Under the pieces are notes generated by a model that was given only the letters and a program-made list of their open reading frames with translations, made no database searches and was not told the DNA's origin. Below are positions 48,669 to 58,000 of a stretch of DNA of 64,000 nucleotides, in pieces (within the stretch, counting starts at the first letter, position 1; the number at the start of each line of letters is the position of its first letter). The position numbers and the translations under genes were made by a program. The stretch is from contig CAZUTO010000002.1 in assembly GCA_964623085.1 (NCBI GenBank), positions 51,498 to 115,497 of the forward strand. The letters are read 5' to 3'. Origin of the DNA: an uncultured Porticoccaceae bacterium. GTDB taxonomy: Bacteria > Pseudomonadota > Gammaproteobacteria > Pseudomonadales > GM7GCV1.

Positions 48669-48792
48669 TCGTTGGGTAACCCATTTTGCCTTGTAAAGCG
48701 CGAGATGGGCAGTGGGTCCGTCGTTGTTTAAAAGCCAGTTGTCGGAAATACTGATCAAATACGTTAAAACATCAGTGTTAGTGGACAGAAAC

Positions 48793-49311
48793 TTAGTCTG
48801 CTACTGGTTGATAGCGAATGCTGGTGACCCAAGCGGTGGTGTTACCTTCCGGTGTGCTGTATTGGATTTCGTCGTCAATAGTTTTACCGATTAACGATTT
48901 TGACAGTGGTGAGTCCACACTGATCCAATTCTGTTTTGCGTCGATCTCATCGTATCCAACGATACGAACGCAAATTTCCTCTTCGTTGTCTTTGTTGTCT
49001 TTTTCCAATGTAACCCAAGCGCCAAAGTAAACTTTGGATTCGTCCTCCGGAATGCGATCGATAACATTCAATTCGTCTAAACGCTTACTCAGGTATCGTA
49101 CGCGCCGATCAATTTCTCGAAGTCGCTGCTTGCCGTATATATAATCGCCATTTTCAGAACGATCACCATTTGCCGCCGCTGCTTTAACAACTGCGGTAAC
49201 CTCCGGCCGTTCTACCTTCCAGAGGTGTTTTAGCTCCGCGCTCAGTTTTTCCGCTCCATCTACCGTAATATATGGCGAGCTTTTGGGTGGAGCGGGGCGC
49301 CACCGACCCAC
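48793..49311 (-). CDS. greB: transcription elongation factor GreB
   Basis: GDRSENGDYIYGKQRLREIDRRVRYLSKRL matches the GreB-type coiled-coil. GTG start overlaps the upstream stop (TAGTG). Confidence 0.85.
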   Translation of the reverse strand: MGRWRPAPPKSSPYITVDGAEKLSAELKHLWKVERPEVTAVVKAAAANGDRSENGDYIYGKQRLREIDRRVRYLSKRLDELNVIDRIPEDESKVYFGAWVTLEKDNKDNEEEICVRIVGYDEIDAKQNWISVDSPLSKSLIGKTIDDEIQYSTPEGNTTAWVTSIRYQPVAD

Positions 49312-51350
49312 TAATCTGACTCCAAATTATGGATTTCGAGATCATGAACAGTAGAGTCAGTATTGAAACCAAAAACGTTGCCATAAAAAGCGAGCTCGGC
49401 ATTAAATGCATGAAAGACATTTTTCGAATTCCGAAATCCGTGACCTTCATCGGTATAGGTAATTAAAGCGACCGGAATCTGCTTTTTCTTGAGCGCATCT
49501 GCCATGGACTCTGCCTGATTCGGCGGGACGACCTTGTCTTTTAAACCTTGGAAAAATATGGTGGGGCAGTCAAAGCCATCTATATGGCGAATGGGTGATC
49601 GCGCTTCATAGATATCGGAACGGCCCACTGGGGCGATCAGTGAATCCATATATCGCGATTCAAATTTATGGGTGTCATTCGCCAACGCACTTAGATCACC
49701 GATTCCGTAGAGGCTGCAGCCAGCGGTAAATACGTCTCTAAAACAAAGAGCGCTTAGTACAGTGTATCCACCAGCACTGCCGCCTCGAATGATAAGGCGA
49801 TCTGGATCTACCATAGCTTGTTCGACGAGGTGTGCTACTGCTGCACAGGCATCGTCGACGTCATAAATGCCCCATTTGCCATTGAGTTTTTCGCGATATG
49901 CTCGCCCGTAGCCGGTTGATCCACGATAGTTAATGTCTGCTACTGCAAAGCCGCGGCTGGTCCAAAACTGTACTTTTAGGTTAAACGTCGCCGTTGTAGA
50001 AGCTGTCGGCCCACCATGGCACAAAACAATTAGCGGCGGTTTTTCCTCTGTTGGTGCTTCGTAAGATCGGTTAGTAGGCGGGTAGAAATATCCGTAGGCT
50101 TCGTCATTCTCGGTGGTATGGAATTTAATCTCTGTTGGTGTCGCAATATCGTTATAGGACAAACCAAGGCTTGCAGATTCAGCAACGATTTCAATCTCCT
50201 TGTTAGAGATTGTGCAAAGTGCGGGTTGCACGCTCGCTCCAGCCGCAATCACCGCGGCGGTTTTTTTTAGAGGGTCTGTTGCTAGGCCGGAAAAATGGTT
50301 GTATGCGCTCAACGCTTGGTGATCGCACAGTCGTTCTGTTTTTTTAGTAGAGAGGCTCTCCCTGTTCATAGAAAGACTCACCGTCTCGATTTGCCAGTTC
50401 GCACCCTGGCAGCTGGTGACGATGATTTGCTCGTCGCTCAGAAAACCCCAAGTGGTCATACCGAACTGCCATAGTGGCAAGCCACACTCCCTCTCACTCG
50501 TGTGGACAGCACTGACAGTCGTATGGTCGTATTGGTAGATGTTCCATATTTGATCGCGGTCACTTACAAAGAATACTTTATTGTTGGGAGACCATTCAGG
50601 TTGAAAGATACTTTCGTTCGGTTGACCTAGACGATCTTTATGAGCGATATCGCCGAGCGCGTCGAATTCCGCAATACAGAGTTTTGTCTGATCCCATGGC
50701 ATATCGGGATGATTCCATTCCAACCAGAGGATGTTTTGCCCATCCGGAGATATACGCGGATGTGCATAAAAATCAGCACCGGAAGTTAGAATTTGAATTT
50801 CCCCGCTATCAGGATTCAATGAAACCAATTGAGATGTGGGTTCAGTGTGGGCGCTTTCATCGTTTTTAGGGTCATGAATTTCTGCTACTGCAACAATACG
50901 GTTTCTATCACAATCAAAGATGAGGTCAGCGAATCGATATGCTTGCTGGTTTGGTGTTTTTTCTTGCGATGGGCTTAGCGCCACTATGTTTGATGGCTCT
51001 AGCAGTGCTTGCCGATAGATGCGCTGATCTTTAGCGTTTACAAAAAAAAGATTTCCGTCGCCGACGGTGTAGCAAAGACCCCCGTACTCATGGGCGCCAG
51101 TTTGCACACTGTAGCTGTCTGGCGTTAGGGTCTGGATACTTCCGTCGTCGAGTCTTCTTGCAACCACCGTTCGGGCTGATTCTGCCGGGCGAAATTCCGT
51201 CCAAAAGAGGTTGTTTTCAAAAAAGCGAGGATAAGAAAAATCAGCACTTTTTTTCGCCATGAGCTCAGTGGAAATAGGCGATTGCCAGCTGCCATATGCC
51301 GATACTATTTTAGCGCCTCGGTCGTTAGTCGCCTTATTCACGTTAGTCAC
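49311..51350 (-). CDS. S9-family serine peptidase (prolyl oligopeptidase/acylaminoacyl-peptidase type)
   Basis: N-terminal beta-propeller region and a C-terminal alpha/beta hydrolase domain with GGSAGGY and the late DEGHGF block. Confidence 0.8.
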   Translation of the reverse strand: MTNVNKATNDRGAKIVSAYGSWQSPISTELMAKKSADFSYPRFFENNLFWTEFRPAESARTVVARRLDDGSIQTLTPDSYSVQTGAHEYGGLCYTVGDGNLFFVNAKDQRIYRQALLEPSNIVALSPSQEKTPNQQAYRFADLIFDCDRNRIVAVAEIHDPKNDESAHTEPTSQLVSLNPDSGEIQILTSGADFYAHPRISPDGQNILWLEWNHPDMPWDQTKLCIAEFDALGDIAHKDRLGQPNESIFQPEWSPNNKVFFVSDRDQIWNIYQYDHTTVSAVHTSERECGLPLWQFGMTTWGFLSDEQIIVTSCQGANWQIETVSLSMNRESLSTKKTERLCDHQALSAYNHFSGLATDPLKKTAAVIAAGASVQPALCTISNKEIEIVAESASLGLSYNDIATPTEIKFHTTENDEAYGYFYPPTNRSYEAPTEEKPPLIVLCHGGPTASTTATFNLKVQFWTSRGFAVADINYRGSTGYGRAYREKLNGKWGIYDVDDACAAVAHLVEQAMVDPDRLIIRGGSAGGYTVLSALCFRDVFTAGCSLYGIGDLSALANDTHKFESRYMDSLIAPVGRSDIYEARSPIRHIDGFDCPTIFFQGLKDKVVPPNQAESMADALKKKQIPVALITYTDEGHGFRNSKNVFHAFNAELAFYGNVFGFNTDSTVHDLEIHNLESD

Positions 51351-51357
51351 GATGTGA

Positions 51358-51678
51358 TTATCCGCCGCTCAACTTAACACTGAAGCCTTCTTTTTCAATG
51401 AGAGCCTTTAGACGGTCACGATGATCGCCTTGAATTTCGATACAGCCATTCTTTATCGCGCCGCCAGTGGCACATTTACTTTTCAGAAGCTTGTTGATGC
51501 GTTTGGTTTCGCTTAGTGGTATTCCACTAATGACACAGACTGCTTTGCCACCCCGTCCTTTGGTCTCGCGGCGTATCCGCACGAATGGATCATCGGCATT
51601 CTGGACGGGTTCCAAAGTTTCTTTAGGTTTAATTCTGCCAACGTCGGTTGAGTAAACTAAGCGGGAGTTTTTATTCAT
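51358..51678 (-). CDS. yciH: SUI1/YciH-family translation initiation factor-like protein
   Basis: 106 aa with RRETKGRGGKAVCVISG...CATGGAIKNGCIEIQGDHRD, the SUI1 pattern. Confidence 0.85.
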   Translation of the reverse strand: MNKNSRLVYSTDVGRIKPKETLEPVQNADDPFVRIRRETKGRGGKAVCVISGIPLSETKRINKLLKSKCATGGAIKNGCIEIQGDHRDRLKALIEKEGFSVKLSGG

Positions 51679-51801
51679 CTTTGTTGAAAAATAATAGATA
51701 GTCCTTCACATTATACTTAGAGCGAGCGGCTCTTAGGTTCGCAATAAGAATCGATGTAAATATAACAAGAAAATTTAATGTAGATCAGTGGAGGAAGGCT
51801 T

Positions 51802-52740
51802 GTGGAATTAGGAATTGTTTGGATTGGTTTAGCAGTCGGCTTAATTATCATGCTGTCCAAGATTGTCCGCATAGTACCGCAAAATGAGGCATATGTGGTG
51901 GAACGCTTGGGTAAATACAACAAGACGCTCGAAGCGGGTTTTCATATGCTGAGGCCCTTTTTTGACAAAGTAGCGTATAAGCATTCACTAAAAGAGCTCG
52001 CGATGGACGTTGCTTCACAGCAAGCGATTACGCGGGATAACGTGGCCTTAAGTATTGATGGCGTGCTTTATATTCGGATTGTAGATCCGAAGGCCGCATC
52101 CTATGGCGTGGAGAACCTGTATTTTGCGATTACTCAATTGGCACAAACCAGTATGCGCGCAGAGATTGGCAAGTTGTCTTTGGATGACACTTTTGAATCC
52201 CGAGAAAATGTTAACGCCAGAGTGACCGAGGCCATTGATGAGGCGTCCGGCGTATGGGGAGCAAAAGTACTGCGTTACGAGGTAAAAGATATTACACCCC
52301 CATCCAGTATTCTCGAAGAGATGGAAAAGCAGATGGGTGCAGAACGAGAACGCCGCGTGGCAGTCACTACCTCTGAAGGGTATCGACAAGCTGAAATCAA
52401 TCAGGCCGAAGGTGATAAACAGTCTGTGATTTTGCGGGCCGAAGGTAACGCCCAAGCTGTGTTGCTAGAAGCAAACGCAAGGGCCGACTCAATACGTGCG
52501 GTAGCGCAAGCGGTAAATCAGGACGGCGGTACAACGGCGATTGCACAGCAACTTGCTGAGCAGTATGTAGCAGCGTTTGAAAAACTTGCCCGCGAAGGCA
52601 CTGTGGCATTGCTGCCGGTTGACGGTGGGGATGTCGCTTCGGTCGTTGGTAAAGCATTTACCGCTTTCAATAGCTTGAAAGGCCAAGTTGAGGGCGTGGA
52701 AGGTACAGAGGGTATGAAAGGTGTAGAGGGCTTGCGATGA
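51802..52740 (+). CDS. SPFH/band-7 (stomatin-like, QmcA-type) protein
   Basis: N-terminal membrane anchor, an SPFH domain (VPQNEAYVVERLGKY...), and a coiled-coil region rich in A/E/Q. GTG start preceded by GGAGGAAGG. Confidence 0.85.
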   Translation: MELGIVWIGLAVGLIIMLSKIVRIVPQNEAYVVERLGKYNKTLEAGFHMLRPFFDKVAYKHSLKELAMDVASQQAITRDNVALSIDGVLYIRIVDPKAASYGVENLYFAITQLAQTSMRAEIGKLSLDDTFESRENVNARVTEAIDEASGVWGAKVLRYEVKDITPPSSILEEMEKQMGAERERRVAVTTSEGYRQAEINQAEGDKQSVILRAEGNAQAVLLEANARADSIRAVAQAVNQDGGTTAIAQQLAEQYVAAFEKLAREGTVALLPVDGGDVASVVGKAFTAFNSLKGQVEGVEGTEGMKGVEGLR

Positions 52741-53186
52741 GTTTGCTATCTGAACCGGTCTACTTTTTCCTGATACTGGGTGTGGCGATGATCCTCATCG
52801 AAATAGCTGTGCTCCAGCTGTCGACATTTTGGCTACTTTTTATCGGTATCGGGGCTTTGGCGGCCTCGCTACTACTTTATCTGGCACCAGGGGTCGGTTG
52901 GGTAGGGGGCATGGGGATTTTCGTTGTTACGACGGTAATCACTACCCTGTTACTTTATCGGCCATTGCGCGCTTGGCAAAATGCGCCATCGCCAATACAG
53001 GGAAATGATGCTATCGGTCAATCTGTTGAGGTTGTCGAGCGAATCACAGCGGATAGCCCTGGGAAAGTAACTTGGTCAGGTACTGAATGGCCGGCCGAGC
53101 TGAAGCAAGGTGAAGAGAAAGTGCTAGAAATTGGAGATCGGGCCGAAATTGTTGAACTGACAGGTATTACGTTGATTGTGAGTTAG
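52737..53186 (+). CDS. NfeD-family membrane protein
   Basis: Three or four TM helices followed by a C-terminal soluble OB-like domain (G.V....W.G.EW.A). ATGA start/stop overlap with the SPFH gene. This is the classic SPFH-NfeD pair. Confidence 0.8.
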   Translation: MSLLSEPVYFFLILGVAMILIEIAVLQLSTFWLLFIGIGALAASLLLYLAPGVGWVGGMGIFVVTTVITTLLLYRPLRAWQNAPSPIQGNDAIGQSVEVVERITADSPGKVTWSGTEWPAELKQGEEKVLEIGDRAEIVELTGITLIVS

Positions 53187-53249
53187 CCTGATTTTTAAGA
53201 TTGGTCATAAAGCTGATCAAAAATTTGTGGAAATTAGGGTTTGGAAAGA

Positions 53250-53418
53250 GAACCAGTTCAAATTCCGGGGCGTTAGGTATGAACTAGGTCACACTTAGAG
53301 TCTTGATAGCTGGCCTAGCTTTGAAACGTCTGTAGTATTGATCTCAGTCACGAATACATAGTTTCTCCTCCTCCTTCTATGTAATTTTATTTGCCCCGCT
53401 AGTCGGGGCATTTTTTTG
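53250..53418 (+). ncRNA. candidate sRNA, copy 1 (169-bp repeat unit; minimal core about 53354-53418)
   Basis: Stem TACATAG/CTATGTA (53355-53361 / 53377-53383) carries a 15-nt loop TTTCTCCTCCTCCTT (anti-SD). It is followed by AATTTTATTT and then the terminator GCCCCG-CTAGT-CGGGGC-A-T7 (53393-53417). The 5' end and promoter are not resolved. Confidence 0.5.
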
Positions 53419-53426
53419 CCTGATCA

Positions 53427-53466
53427 TTAATAGTTAACTCGATGTGTTAATAGTTAACCCGATGCG
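53427..53466. repeat. 2 x 20-bp tandem direct repeat, each containing a TTAA-TAG-TTAA palindrome
   Basis: TTAATAGTTAACTCGATGTG (53427-53446) and TTAATAGTTAACCCGATGCG (53447-53466) match at 18 of 20 positions. The second extends to GTTAA-TAG-TTAAC. The repeat is found only in the spacer upstream of sRNA copy 2. Confidence 0.6.
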
Positions 53467-53506
53467 TTGACGTCTCGAAAATGGATAAAAACAGCACTTA
53501 GAATTT

Positions 53507-53675
53507 GAACCAGTTCAAATTCCGGGGCGTTAGGTATGAACTAGGTCACACTTAGAGTCTTGATAGCTGGCCTAGCTTTGAAACGTCTGTAGTATTGATC
53601 TCAGTCACGAATACATAGTTTCTCCTCCTCCTTCTATGTAATTTTATTTGCCCCGCTAGTCGGGGCATTTTTTTG
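53507..53675 (+). ncRNA. candidate sRNA, copy 2 (identical to 53250..53418)
   Basis: 169 of 169 bases are identical to copy 1 at an offset of 257 bp. Anti-SD loop at 53619-53633. Terminator at 53650-53674. Confidence 0.5.
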
Positions 53676-53869
53676 TCTAATCATTTCTGATAGCTAAATA
53701 TATCTTTGCGATCTTGGTCCGCGACAATTCTCTATTTGAGCGCTTTATTGACTGGGTTTGTGCTCCTGCCCATTCAACATAAAAAAGAGTTATGATGTGT
53801 TCAGATTTTCTTAATCTAGAAGCCCATCAGTTCGTGCTACAAAGTTATAGGTGCTTCTTTCCTTGATCA

Positions 53870-55000
53870 GTGATGTTTATGAGCCTTTTCCGAAACCTTT
53901 GGAATTCAAAAAACTATCGAATTTCTCTCCTGCTGGCGCTGGTCATGCTGCTTTGGCTGGCAAGTGGAGTTTTAGTTGGAGAAACAGAAACTGAGAGTGA
54001 TCAGGAAACTGATCAAGCCCGGGAAGCCGAGGCCTCGGTGAAGGCCAAGGTAATTAATGCATCCGAGCTTCCATTAGTAGTGTCAATCCGTGCCCGTACT
54101 GAACCTAATCGAACAGTAGAGCTTCAAGCAAAAGTAGAGGGAACGGTACAGGCATTGCCGGTCAATAAAGGTGACTTTGTTGAAGCCGGTGAGGTTGTGT
54201 GTGAGCTTGAGGTAGAAGATCGAAAAGAAATACTTAATCAGGCTCAAGCGGGGTTGGAGAAGGCTGAGATCGATTACGACGGCGCGCAGCGTTTGGAGTC
54301 AGGTGGATTTCAGTCGCAGTCAGAGATTGCGCAAGCATTGGCAAGTTTGGAAGTCGCACGCGCTGCCTATCGACGCGCACAGCTTGATCTGGAATATCTT
54401 GAAATCAAAGCACCGTTCGATGGCTTTATTGATGAGCGCCCAGTTGAGTTGGGTGACTTTATGCAGCGAGGCGAAATGTGCGCGCGCATTCTGGATTTGG
54501 ATCCACTATTAGTAACAGGCCAAGTATCGGAAAAGGATATCGCTCAAATCGCTTCTGGCGATCCAGTAAATGCAACACTTATTACGGGCGAGGCGGTGAG
54601 TGGTGCTATTCGTTTTGTAGAGCGCAGTGCAGATGAAGTCACACGCACATTTCGCTTGGAGGCAGAGATTCCCAATTCGGAGTATTCATTGCTTAGTGGC
54701 GTCAGCGCGGCGCTTGAAGTACCCACCGGTACTGCGATGGCGCAATTAATCAATTCTTCACTGCTAATTCTGACCGATTCTGGGGAACTGGGTGTCAAGG
54801 TGCTTGATAACGACAATCGCGTGCGTTTGATGCTCGTGGAGCTTATTTCCGATTCCAGCTCGGGTGTCTGGGTCTCTGGTCTACCGCAATCGACGACGAT
54901 CATTACGCTTGGTCAACAGTATGTGTCTGACGGCGAGGCTCCTGTCGTGACTCTTGAAGACAGTTCAGCAAGCACTAGCGCTAGAACTGGGTCTCCATGA
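53870..55000 (+). CDS. RND efflux periplasmic adaptor (membrane fusion protein)
   Basis: N-terminal anchor, coiled-coil hairpin, lipoyl/beta-barrel blocks (IKAPFDGFI), and an ATGA overlap with the downstream RND pump. Confidence 0.85.
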   Translation: MMFMSLFRNLWNSKNYRISLLLALVMLLWLASGVLVGETETESDQETDQAREAEASVKAKVINASELPLVVSIRARTEPNRTVELQAKVEGTVQALPVNKGDFVEAGEVVCELEVEDRKEILNQAQAGLEKAEIDYDGAQRLESGGFQSQSEIAQALASLEVARAAYRRAQLDLEYLEIKAPFDGFIDERPVELGDFMQRGEMCARILDLDPLLVTGQVSEKDIAQIASGDPVNATLITGEAVSGAIRFVERSADEVTRTFRLEAEIPNSEYSLLSGVSAALEVPTGTAMAQLINSSLLILTDSGELGVKVLDNDNRVRLMLVELISDSSSGVWVSGLPQSTTIITLGQQYVSDGEAPVVTLEDSSASTSARTGSP

Positions 55001-58000
55001 CAATACTCTCGGCAGCTGTCGATCGTTACCGCAGCACGTTCTGTATTGCGTTTTTAGTTGTTTTTATCGGATTGTTTGCGCGAACGGAAACGTCAATTGA
55101 ATCGTTCCCAGACATCGCTGCTGGTAGAGCAACGGTTTCCGTATTTTTGGATGGTATTTCGCCGGAAGATAATGCTCGTCTGCTTATTCGTCCCTTGGAG
55201 CGCGAAATTCGCGGCATAGAAGGTGTCGAAGAAATAGATGCATCTGCGCGAGAATCTCTTGCCTATCTCCTTGTTGATTTTGAAGCAGGTATTGATATCG
55301 ACGATGCTTTGGTTGATCTGCGTGAGGCGGTTGACAGAGCGAAGGCAGAGTTGCCTCAGTCCGCAGAAGAACCCGTCGTACAAGAAATTTCAGCTGCGCT
55401 TTTCCCTACTATCGTTGTGGCGTTTTCCGGCGATGACGCATCAGAACGCTCACTTTTTCAAGCAGCAAGAGATATGGAACAGCGTATTGAATCGCTGCCA
55501 GATGTCCTATCGGCAGATCTTGGGGGGAACCGAGAGGAAGTATTAGAAGTCGTCATTGAACCCGCTCGTTTGGAGTACTACAACATTACGAGCGATGAAC
55601 TATTTACTGCAGTATTTAACAACAATCTTCTTGTTCCAGCAGGACAGTTGGACGATGGGAGCGGTAAGTTTGCGGTGAAGGTTCCGGGGCTAATCGAGAC
55701 AGCGACAGATGTATATGAATTGCCGCTTAAAGCCACCAACGATGGACTGATCACCTTAGGTGATGTCGGCGAAATAAGGCGAACCTTTAAAGATGCCGTG
55801 ACAGAGACCACTATTTCTGGGAAGAAGTCGATTATTTTGTCGGTTAGTAGGCGGACGGGAACAAATCTAATCGAAGTCGCTGAAGCGGTGAGGGAGGTCG
55901 TTAATGCTTCGAAAAGCGAGTTGCCGGGAGGCGTAGAGGTCTCGTTTTTACTAGATCAATCTCCATTTACACAGGACCTTGTAAGCGAAATGGAGGGGAA
56001 CATTGTTACGGCAATGGGTCTAGTGATGGTGATTGTTGTCGCCGTGCTTGGTTTTCGATCCGGCGTGCTTGTAGGGCTCGGTATTCCGTTTTCGTTGCTA
56101 TTCGGTCTCACGGTCAATTATTTAATCGGCTTTTCATTCAACTTCATGGTGATGTTCGGCATGCTGCTGGCATTGGGTATGTTGATTGATGGTGCGATTG
56201 TTGTAACGGAATACGCTGATCGAAGAATGGCAGAAGGCATGCGGAGTAGCGACGCTTATCAGACTGCTGTGAAGCGCATGTTTTGGCCGGTCACTTCATC
56301 CACAGCGACCACATTAGCAGCATTTTTACCACTGATGTTGTGGCCCGGAGTAGTGGGACAATTTATGCGCTTTCTTCCGGTAACGGTATTTGGTGTGCTG
56401 GTGGGCTCCCTACTTTACGCGCTGCTATTCGCTCCCGTGCTTGGCGCGGTGATCGGTGGGGGCGCAATGAGTGAACAGACACGTAAGCGCTTGTCTGAAC
56501 TTGAGCGGGAATCACCTTATAAACTGGAAGGATTTACTGGTCGATACGCGAGCGTTTTGATCACGCTTTTACGGCATCCTATAAAAACCTTTGGCGCTTC
56601 TATAGCCAGTTTGACGGGGATATTTTTTCTGTTTGTTTTTCTGTCAGCGGGCGTTGTGTTTTATACCGATTCCGAAGAGCCTTATGCCACTGTCTCTGTG
56701 AGAGCCCAGGCAAACTTCTCCGCCGCTGAAACAGCGGAAATTGTAAGGGAGGTTGAGCAGCGAATTGTTGAATTTCCTGAAGTCTTCGCAACCTATGCAA
56801 CTAGTGGCTCAGCTGATGATGGCAATACGTTTTCAGCGCCGGACAAGGATACGATTGGTAATATCTTTGTGGAACTCTATCCACCTGATACCTTTGAAAA
56901 AAAGGTTCGAGAAGTATTTGCGGAGATAGATGAAGCTACCGCAGATATGCCCGGTATTTATGTAAATGCATTTATTCAGGAGGCTGGTCCGCCTGTCGGT
57001 AAACCGATACAAATCGAGTTGCAGTCTAACGACATTGACAAGCTAATTAGAAACACGAGATTGATATCGAATCATCTTCTTAACGAGGTAGGCGGCCTGC
57101 GCGATGTGGTTGATACGACACCCTTGCCTGGTATTGAGTGGCAGATGATTGTTGACCGCGGTCTTGCCGCTCAGATGGGTGCCAATATTACGGAAGTTGG
57201 GCGGGCGGTGCAGTTGGTGACTAACGGTGTGTTAGTCGGCGCATACCGACCTGATAATGCCGAAGACGAGGTTGATATTCGAGTACGTTTTCCTGAACAA
57301 CATCGTGGTGTACAGCAGCTGGATTTACTGCGTGTGAATACACAGAGCGGATCTGTGCCTGTTTCAAGTTTTGTCTCTCGAGAAGCGCGCCCGAAAGTTG
57401 ATTCGATAAAACGGATCGATGGTGTACAGGTCATGACGGTGCGTGCCGATGTGGAACCAGGCGTGCTAGCTGACGATAAGGTAAAAGAAATCCGTGCTTG
57501 GCTAGAAACGGCTGATGTCGATTCAGACGTGCGTATTCTTTTTCGCGGAGCCAATGAAGAACAGGCGGAGTCGTTCGCATTTCTAGGCGTAGCCTTTACC
57601 TTGGCACTATTTTTGATGTTTATTCTTTTGGTGACACAATTTAACAGCTTCTACCAAGGGTTTTTGATCCTGTCATCTGTGATTCTTTCAACCGCCGGTG
57701 TTTTGCTCGGGCTAGTCGTCACTCAAGCCACCTTTAGCGTCATATTAACGGGCGTTGGTATTGTTGCGCTGGCGGGTATCGTCGTGAACAACAACATTGT
57801 ATTGATAGATACCTATAACCATGTGAGACAGCATGAGCCTCAGTTGGACAGAGTAGAAGCGGCAGCGAAGGCCGCAGCGCAAAGATTACGCCCCGTATTT
57901 TTGACCACAATCACCACCGTTCTAGGGCTTTTGCCGATTGCGACGAATTTGAGTATTGATCTCATTGGTCGTGACATTACGCATGGTGGGTCTGTTGCAT

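Follow-up and report, generated by a model that had tools for sequence, protein, structure and literature searches.

A tandem pair of predicted small RNA genes with an anti-Shine-Dalgarno loop between nfeD and an RND efflux operon in an uncultured Porticoccaceae bacterium

The DNA analysed here, which we refer to as the window, is a stretch of 64,000 nucleotides from an uncultured Porticoccaceae bacterium (contig CAZUTO010000002.1), and between nfeD and the genes of an RND efflux operon it carries two copies of a 169 bp unit, at positions 53250-53418 and 53507-53675. We think it likely that each unit is an independent gene for an Hfq-type small RNA (sRNA) of approximately 72 nt that would act in trans by blocking ribosome-binding sites, and that the two copies are siblings. 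The unit represents a conserved, previously unannotated family of predicted sRNA genes of a well-known regulator kind, seen only among uncultured gammaproteobacteria of a marine type, and in the window its two tandem copies have recently been homogenised. An initial annotation of the stretch had proposed two tandem sRNA genes with an anti-Shine-Dalgarno (anti-SD) loop, and this proposal is supported by the approximately 90% conservation of the hairpin, loop, linker and terminator in syntenic relatives.

Direct comparison of the repeats bore out the earlier observation that the two units are identical base for base over 169 bp, and a repeat finder lengthened the match to 188 nt, of which 97% is identical (53241-53428 and 53498-53685, period 257). 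Each unit comprises a promoter region of about 96 bp followed by the RNA of about 72 nt (Table 1). The spacer between the copies had been described as 88 bp of non-repeating sequence; its size is correct, but it contains a 20 bp tandem direct repeat at 53427-53466. The two halves of this repeat, TTAATAGTTAACTCGATGTG (53427-53446) and TTAATAGTTAACCCGATGCG (53447-53466), are 90% identical and each has a GTTAAC palindrome; the repeat is also found in a sister strain (contig L001), single-copy relatives are without it, and it may be a scar left by the duplication or may serve copy 2 as an additional operator. It had also been stated that no open reading frame (ORF) of more than two codons runs through the unit, which is wrong, as each copy has a 38-codon ATG ORF on the minus strand (53295-53411 and 53552-53668) and on the plus strand two further ORFs (23 and 28 codons) extend over the 5' part of copy 1. 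The minus-strand ORF is missing in the relative L003, and in L010 and L012 it has different starts, a frame that is shifted after a 1 nt loop indel, and unrelated C-termini. Since the ORFs are not conserved, we still hold the unit to be non-coding.

Read 5' to 3', the predicted RNA consists of a short tail, a 7 bp hairpin, an A/U-rich linker, an intrinsic terminator and a tail of U7-8. Its +1 was set at the A of a TCAG sequence 8 nt past the -10 hexamer, with an uncertainty of approximately 2 nt. The 29 nt hairpin that had been pointed out in both copies (TACATAG, the 15 nt loop TTTCTCCTCCTCCTT, CTATGTA) was recovered in a motif count, with exactly two occurrences in the window against none expected, and a terminator scan likewise found the terminator annotated at the end of each copy; in the relatives the terminator is kept, with a U8 tail. 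Across lineages the hairpin loop reads UUUCUCCUCC(U)CCUU, and its start, UUUCUCCUCC, is invariant. When predicted sRNA 1 was folded, the minimum free energy and centroid structures were both hairpin plus terminator (z = -3.9), and nhmmer matched this RNA (53346-53417) to the sRNA profile with E = 2.5e-18. The minimum free energy structures of the 72-74 nt RNAs from four lineages all contain the common seed hairpin and the terminator, with which the centroid agrees in three of the four cases, and the z-scores against dinucleotide shuffles range from -3.9 to -5.2; in L003 and L012 flanking pairs lengthen the seed stem. Over five lineages all of the seed-stem cells pair (35/35), with six of the seven pairs never varying and the seventh changing from A-U to G-U. 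An A/U stretch, a G+C hairpin and a long U tail make up the textbook Hfq-binding 3' module, and the RNA has in its sequence what is expected of an Hfq-type sRNA, namely an A/U-rich single-stranded stretch, a Rho-independent terminator and a long U tail.

The distribution of the element was determined by following NfeD homologues (99, 77, 75, 70, 67, 64 and 60% identity) to their contigs. The intergenic region from nfeD to the RND genes is syntenic in every contig that shows the downstream genes, and at all syntenic loci the element lies approximately 160-170 nt past nfeD and on the same strand. There is a single copy in each of the four lineages in which the full intergenic region is covered (L003, L007, L010 and L012), while two short contigs, L144 and L145, have part of one copy each, that of L144 being the promoter only. 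The tandem pair was found again in L001, the sister strain with 99% NfeD identity and an independent assembly, and the duplication is restricted to the window's species. The stem-loop and its C/U-rich loop are kept at the syntenic loci, and mean column identity over the RNA part is about 90% across lineages, compared with 60-77% for NfeD. Two regimes can be seen in the alignment (in which MAFFT misplaced an indel in the terminator loop): from TCAG onward the sequences are approximately 90% identical, and upstream there are short invariant blocks amid freely varying sequence. This is the signature of a promoter followed by an RNA gene.

Beyond these relatives the element was not recovered. At NfeD identities of 55% or less the synteny is gone and a search with the sRNA profile finds nothing; specifically, nhmmer gave no match in NfeD loci that lack synteny (L014 and L141-L143, from Agarilytica, Paraferrimonas and others). 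There are no further copies in the window or among approximately 145 loci. The pattern ATAGTTTCTCCTCC-N0-5-CTTCTAT matched five times (in Bacillota, Pedobacter, Kordia and Atribacterota) over 185,579 species genomes, which do not include the host's own sequence, and since none of the five has a hairpin or terminator context we ascribe them to chance. A metagenome scan with a looser pattern gave no true homologue among the matches listed, which were dominated by one abundant human-gut sequence, and the plasmid, phage and viral collections hold no copy, the sole viral-contig match being unrelated and having neither hairpin nor terminator. This sequence, which contains GTTAACACATAGTTTCTCCTCCCTTCTAATAGAAATTATGTCATGTGATAGAATG, is near-identical in dozens of human-gut metagenome contigs (L021-L140); it is unrelated to the sRNA, and its complementary strand reads like a strong ribosome-binding site of some common gut bacterium.

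No convincing promoter had been recognised inside the unit. However, the pattern CTGG-N19-TA[AG][TC]AT-N5-TCAG is located there and is present in nine of nine copies, with two sites of the TGA-N6-TCA type upstream of it. Site 2 conforms to (A/G)(T/G)GAACT-N3-TCACA, is centred at -60.5 in 9/9 copies and has a right half, TCACA, that is invariant in all nine; the window's version agrees with the CRP core TGTGA-N6-TCACA at nine of ten positions. Site 1 conforms to TTGA-N6-TCA(A/T); its centre is at -91.5 in the window's species, against -101.5 in the five relatives measured (L003, L007, L010, L012 and L144), and the automated search mislocated the site in L145. The indel between the two sites is 10 bp, or one helical turn, and the helical phase is kept. 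Class I activators have their centres at -61.5, -71.5, -82.5 and -92.5 (Busby and Ebright), with which the centres found here, -60.5 and -91.5 or -101.5, may be compared bearing in mind that they are counted from a predicted start that is uncertain by about 1-2 nt. The geometry of the sites suggests that a CRP/FNR-family dimer may activate a class I-type promoter of the sRNA. Elsewhere in the window, matches to TGAAC-N2-GTTCA or to the CRP core were only intragenic or at chance level. Two other kinds of promoter were considered and rejected on the alignment: a sigma-54 promoter would call for the GG/GC spacing and a -12 element, neither of which is conserved, and the GGAACT block that might suggest sigma-E lies approximately 46 nt upstream of the -10 and lacks a conserved TCTGA/TCAAA partner 16-17 nt further downstream.

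As copy 2 lies downstream of the terminator of copy 1, it must have a promoter of its own. When copy 2 of L001 was aligned with copy 1 over the 108 nt promoter region, 14 differences were found, and none of the 14 falls at any of the 34 positions that are invariant in seven lineages (P = 0.003). This bears on an alternative explanation, that the RNA is mainly a 3' untranslated region product of the SPFH-nfeD operon, with read-through transcription stopping at the terminator, an RNase freeing the 3' module, and the upstream blocks being no promoter at all. Such sRNAs are a known class, the element follows nfeD at 160-170 nt on the same strand in every lineage, and, as had been noted before, nothing like a terminator intervenes, the terminator scan making no call from the end of nfeD (stop at 53186) up to copy 1. 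Even so, we regard this explanation as rather improbable. Copy 2, past the strong terminator of copy 1, retains all of the conserved upstream blocks and its substitutions avoid them, while the sequence between the blocks varies freely; furthermore, the fixed CTGG-N19-(-10)-N5-TCAG spacing and the phase-preserving 10 bp indel are traits of a promoter and not of an RNA. The earlier idea that copy 1 is processed from the nfeD transcript is unneeded given the conserved promoter, and fails to explain copy 2, although the two routes could coexist.

If each unit is an independent sRNA gene, then transcription would start approximately 8 nt past the conserved -10 hexamer, and an activator would bind the two TGA-N6-TCA sites near -61 and -92 (-102 in the relatives), which share one face of the helix in the manner of class I promoters of the CRP/FNR family. 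The C/U-rich loop would pair with the purine-rich ribosome-binding sites of target mRNAs, and this pairing would block 30S binding and often trigger mRNA decay. The loop sequence UUUCUCCUCC is complementary to ribosome-binding sites of the GGAGGAGAAA type and resembles the 16S anti-SD sequence. The strongest start-region duplexes in the window were those with a cupin gene at 46211 (-16.6 kcal/mol, with nine uninterrupted pairs formed to UUUCUCCUC), with a gene of the leuD type (-15.6) and with the Band_7 gene (-13.4). It was also seen, over the start regions of 44700-61400 in the window and of the relative L146, that most genes have a weak purine-rich SD sequence or none, and that duplexes are mostly weaker than -9 kcal/mol. 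If such weak ribosome-binding sites hold genome-wide, an anti-SD sRNA would act only on a small subset of genes with a strong SD.

Several observations weigh against an independently transcribed, trans-acting sRNA. The 5' start of the RNA is predicted from sequence alone, and a simple sigma-70 scan made no call on the promoter of the unit, which is explained by its poor -35 region, where CTGG alone is conserved. The half-sites other than the right half of site 2 (TCACA) read (T/G)GAAC and not the canonical GTGA of CRP, and it is resemblance to a consensus that points to the family of the regulator. The entire 169 nt unit is no more stable than shuffled sequences (z = -0.9), a value that fits with the RNA being the 3' 72 nt only. 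Compensatory changes, which were looked for in the relatives as had been proposed, occur in neither stem (the seed stem being checked over five lineages), so that the structure rests on conservation and thermodynamics. The known lineages number only seven, are closely related and are all metagenomic. Finally, no conserved target was found in the start regions of the window and L146: no homologous gene pair scores well in both, and the best-scoring cupin gene is missing from L146. The adjacent RND genes pair poorly with the loop (-2.1 kcal/mol), as do the neighbouring SPFH genes; the poor RND pairing argues against a cis or neighbour-directed role. As a long shot, the sRNA might be a dosage-tuned, CRP-family-controlled mimic of the anti-SD sequence, or might pair with GGA-rich CsrA/RsmA sites (Gac/Rsm cross-talk), with tandem duplication and gene conversion acting as a copy-number rheostat.

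A second alternative takes the element for a cis-acting leader or attenuator that serves the RND efflux operon, with a regulated terminator and a C/U loop that sequesters the operon's own ribosome-binding site. It is true that the two are on the same strand and adjacent in all lineages. However, the membrane-fusion protein gene starts approximately 200-310 nt past the terminator, the stretch between the two is poorly conserved and includes a separate promoter-like block (TTATGAT...) that is conserved, and that gene start has no purine-rich site with which the loop could form anything better than the weak duplex given above. With no alternative anti-terminator fold apparent either, and as the tandem duplication of a leader would make no sense, we consider this very unlikely.

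The perfect identity of the two copies raises the question of whether the unit is a repetitive or mobile element (REP/MITE-like), or whether the repeat is purely an artefact of assembly. It is unusual for 169 bp to agree perfectly, the window apparently stems from a metagenome assembly, and the copies in L001 are not identical. Nevertheless the tandem layout recurs in L001, relatives hold one syntenic copy, and a dispersed element, which the initial annotation had raised, would be expected in additional copies, whereas there are none in the window or the approximately 145 loci and none beyond chance in the plasmid, phage and viral sequences or the 185,579 species genomes. We therefore give scarcely any credence to this explanation as applied to the element itself, although the level of identity could be an artefact. 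Over 8450 bp the window and L001 differ at 16 positions, of which nine lie in 53523-53566, in the promoter of copy 2, and two more in the spacer. Copy 1 of L001 is the same as both copies of the window, and its copy-2 unit differs at the nine positions, so that 100% identity between copies is peculiar to the window's assembly. Because copy 2 is diverged in L001, the duplication predates both strains. Of the earlier suggestion of very recent duplication or ongoing gene conversion, the gene conversion part is thus in keeping with the comparison and the fresh duplication is not; in the window strain, either copy 1 would have overwritten copy 2 by gene conversion or the assembler merged the copies. 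In addition, it was noticed that L002, a 2069 bp Logan contig of the window's species, ends at window position 53339, 30 nt past the last inter-copy difference of L001. A k=31 unitig would break at this point if the sample has diverged copies of the L001 type.

The last alternative, that the minus strand is the functional one, presenting three overlapping GGA motifs in the hairpin loop AAGGAGGAGGAGAAA, of the GGA-rich kind bound by CsrA/RsmA, or encoding a 38-residue arginine-rich peptide in its 38-codon ORF, is equally hard to credit, since the run of T7-8 after the terminator is on the plus strand only in all lineages, which makes the strand assignment firm (what follows the stem on the minus strand is AAAUAAAAUU, in L012 ACACUAAAUU), every conserved promoter block lies upstream on the plus strand, known CsrA sponges have many GGA hairpins and not one, and the ORF is conserved neither in start and frame nor in its presence.

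Table 1. Features of the two predicted sRNA genes (window coordinates).
Feature	Position	Strand	Basis
Repeat unit copy 1, whole predicted sRNA gene (promoter, RNA and terminator)	53250..53418	+	identity with copy 2; alignment with 7 lineages
Repeat unit copy 2, whole predicted sRNA gene	53507..53675	+	identity with copy 1; differs at 9 positions in L001
Inter-copy spacer, 88 bp	53419..53506	+	last ~35 bp resemble ancestral upstream region
Upstream site 1, copy 1: AGAACCAGTTCA, TGA-N6-TCA type, centre ~-91.5	53249..53260	+	motif search, alignment
Upstream site 1, copy 2, within perfect 10+2+10 palindrome GAATTTGAAC-CA-GTTCAAATTC	53501..53522	+	repeat/inverted-repeat finder, motif search
Site 2, copy 1: TATGAACTAGGTCACA, centre -60.5 from A of TCAG	53278..53293	+	motif search
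Site 2, copy 2	53535..53550	+	motif search
Putative core promoter; in copy 1 CTGG 53310-53313, 19 nt spacer, -10 TAGTAT 53333-53338	53310..53338; copy 2 53567..53595	+	invariant alignment columns
Predicted sRNA 1, ~72 nt	53346..53417	+	start placed within ~2 nt from -10 and invariant TCAG
Predicted sRNA 2, identical to sRNA 1	53603..53674	+	sequence identity; profile match
Seed hairpin, 7 bp stem, loop 53362-53376 = UUUCUCCUCCUCCUU	53355..53383; copy 2 53612..53640	+	motif count, folding
A/U-rich linker AUUUUAUU	53384..53391; copy 2 53641..53648	+	sequence, alignment
Intrinsic terminator TGCCCCG-CTAGT-CGGGGCA + T7	53392..53417; copy 2 53649..53674	+	terminator scan

The window is chromosomal, as it bears purL, mltF, ffh and thrC. 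Its Ffh is 100% identical to metagenome entries only, and with named organisms the identity is at most 72-74%, all of these being of the Cellvibrionales type (Porticoccaceae metagenome-assembled genomes, Maricurvus, Aestuariicella and Pseudomaricurvus). On this sequence relationship the host is an uncultured, Cellvibrionales-like gammaproteobacterium. The gene order around the pair is SUI1 (minus strand), SPFH/Band_7, NfeD, the two units, the RND membrane-fusion protein, an AcrB-type pump and LysR (minus strand). An Ion_trans gene, for a channel of the voltage-gated type, lies between SUI1 and Band_7 in L007 (2238-3059) and L010 (1344-2063) and is absent from the window (51679-51801) and from L003. 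Upstream of the RND operon, at 53775-53830 in the window, there is a conserved block, AAAAAAGAGTTATGATGTGTTCAGATTTTCTTAATCTAGAAG, in which TTATGAT resembles a -10 element and AGATT-N5-AATCT forms an inverted repeat; L003 and L007 (4795-4850 in each) retain the block and L010 and L012 do not, and it probably serves as promoter and operator of the efflux operon itself. Further downstream, the gene for a LysR-family regulator (58274-59176, minus strand) is divergent from genes for the large and small subunits of an aconitase-family enzyme (59903-61995, plus strand) that are leuC/leuD-like by Pfam, an arrangement resembling leuO-leuABCD.

The predicted genes add an sRNA family with a readable promoter, seed and terminator to a Cellvibrionales-like lineage that is known from metagenomes only, in which no regulatory RNA matches any Rfam family and whose Ffh is no more than 74% identical to that of any named organism. 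They also offer a clean natural case of the origin of sibling sRNAs, with a single copy in the relatives, a pair in one species, and promoters that are diverged or homogenised according to the strain. The phase-preserving 10 bp indel provides a promoter architecture that is directly testable. Current models of sRNA biology are left unchanged, and none is contradicted.

A search of the whole window against Rfam 15, which covers CyaR, RyhB, MicA and GcvB, gave no family at its gathering score. The best matches below threshold were to asX2 (terminator only), RyhB (20.5 against 55) and GcvB (22.9 against 42). Among plus-strand alignments the best was to RF02278, Betaproteobacteria toxic small RNA, which spans the loop and the terminator and scored 22.5 bits against a gathering score of 50 (E = 0.046 in an 801 nt search); L003, L010 and L012 gave no match to this family at E<=1. 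RNAs of the RF02278 type in Burkholderia cenocepacia are 57-92 nt in length and have one anti-SD hairpin of the CUCCUCC type followed by an intrinsic terminator (PMC4603805). The RNA described here shares this design, a C/U-rich anti-SD hairpin and an intrinsic terminator within about 60-90 nt, and the likeness is one of architecture only. The host class differs, being Gammaproteobacteria here, and RF02278 genes are dispersed in multiple copies whereas those described here are syntenic and either single or tandem.

In terms of function the nearest analogue is CyaR, which represses ompX, nadE, luxS and other genes through an anti-SD stretch of the CCUCCU type. CyaR (RyeE) is an Hfq-dependent sRNA of the Enterobacteriaceae, the transcription of which is activated by Crp-cAMP (PMC9002310). 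In the present case a site matching nine of ten CRP-core positions at about -61, together with its geometry, would suggest control by a member of the CRP family. CyaR is single-copy, unlike the tandem genes here, and the Rfam CyaR model found no sequence or structure match at E<=10.

The CcsR1-4 (cuckoo) RNAs of Alphaproteobacteria, to which the initial annotation had drawn a parallel, have two to four adjacent hairpins, each with CCUCCUCCC in its loop, and associate with Hfq (PMC4615179); they are transcribed together with a small upstream gene from an RpoHI/HII promoter and have a single shared terminator (PMC4615179). The C/U-rich, anti-SD-like loop and the presence of multiple adjacent copies are features in common. 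In contrast, the RNA described here has one motif hairpin, with the loop UUUCUCCUCCUCCUU or UUUCUCCUCCCCUU, the exact 9-mer CCUCCUCCC is absent, and both copies come with a terminator and conserved promoter blocks of their own. We conclude that it differs from the CcsR/cuckoo family in hairpin number, loop motif, co-transcription and the sharing of a terminator.

As a pair, the two genes are most readily compared with OmrA/OmrB, PrrF1/PrrF2 and AbcR1/AbcR2, tandem sibling sRNAs that arose by duplication, have a promoter and terminator each and are single-copy in some relatives (PMC4211561); AbcR1 is also reported to use motifs of the anti-SD type (PMC4152367). Provided that the RNAs are expressed as predicted, sibling sRNAs, that is, at least two homologous genes in one genome that arose by duplication, are present both in the window and in L001. 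None of the three known pairs is homologous to it in sequence, and all of them have diverged (OmrA and OmrB share their ends only), which leaves room for distinct targets or regulation, whereas the two RNAs described here are 100% identical. It follows that dosage or promoter differences alone can distinguish the two copies.

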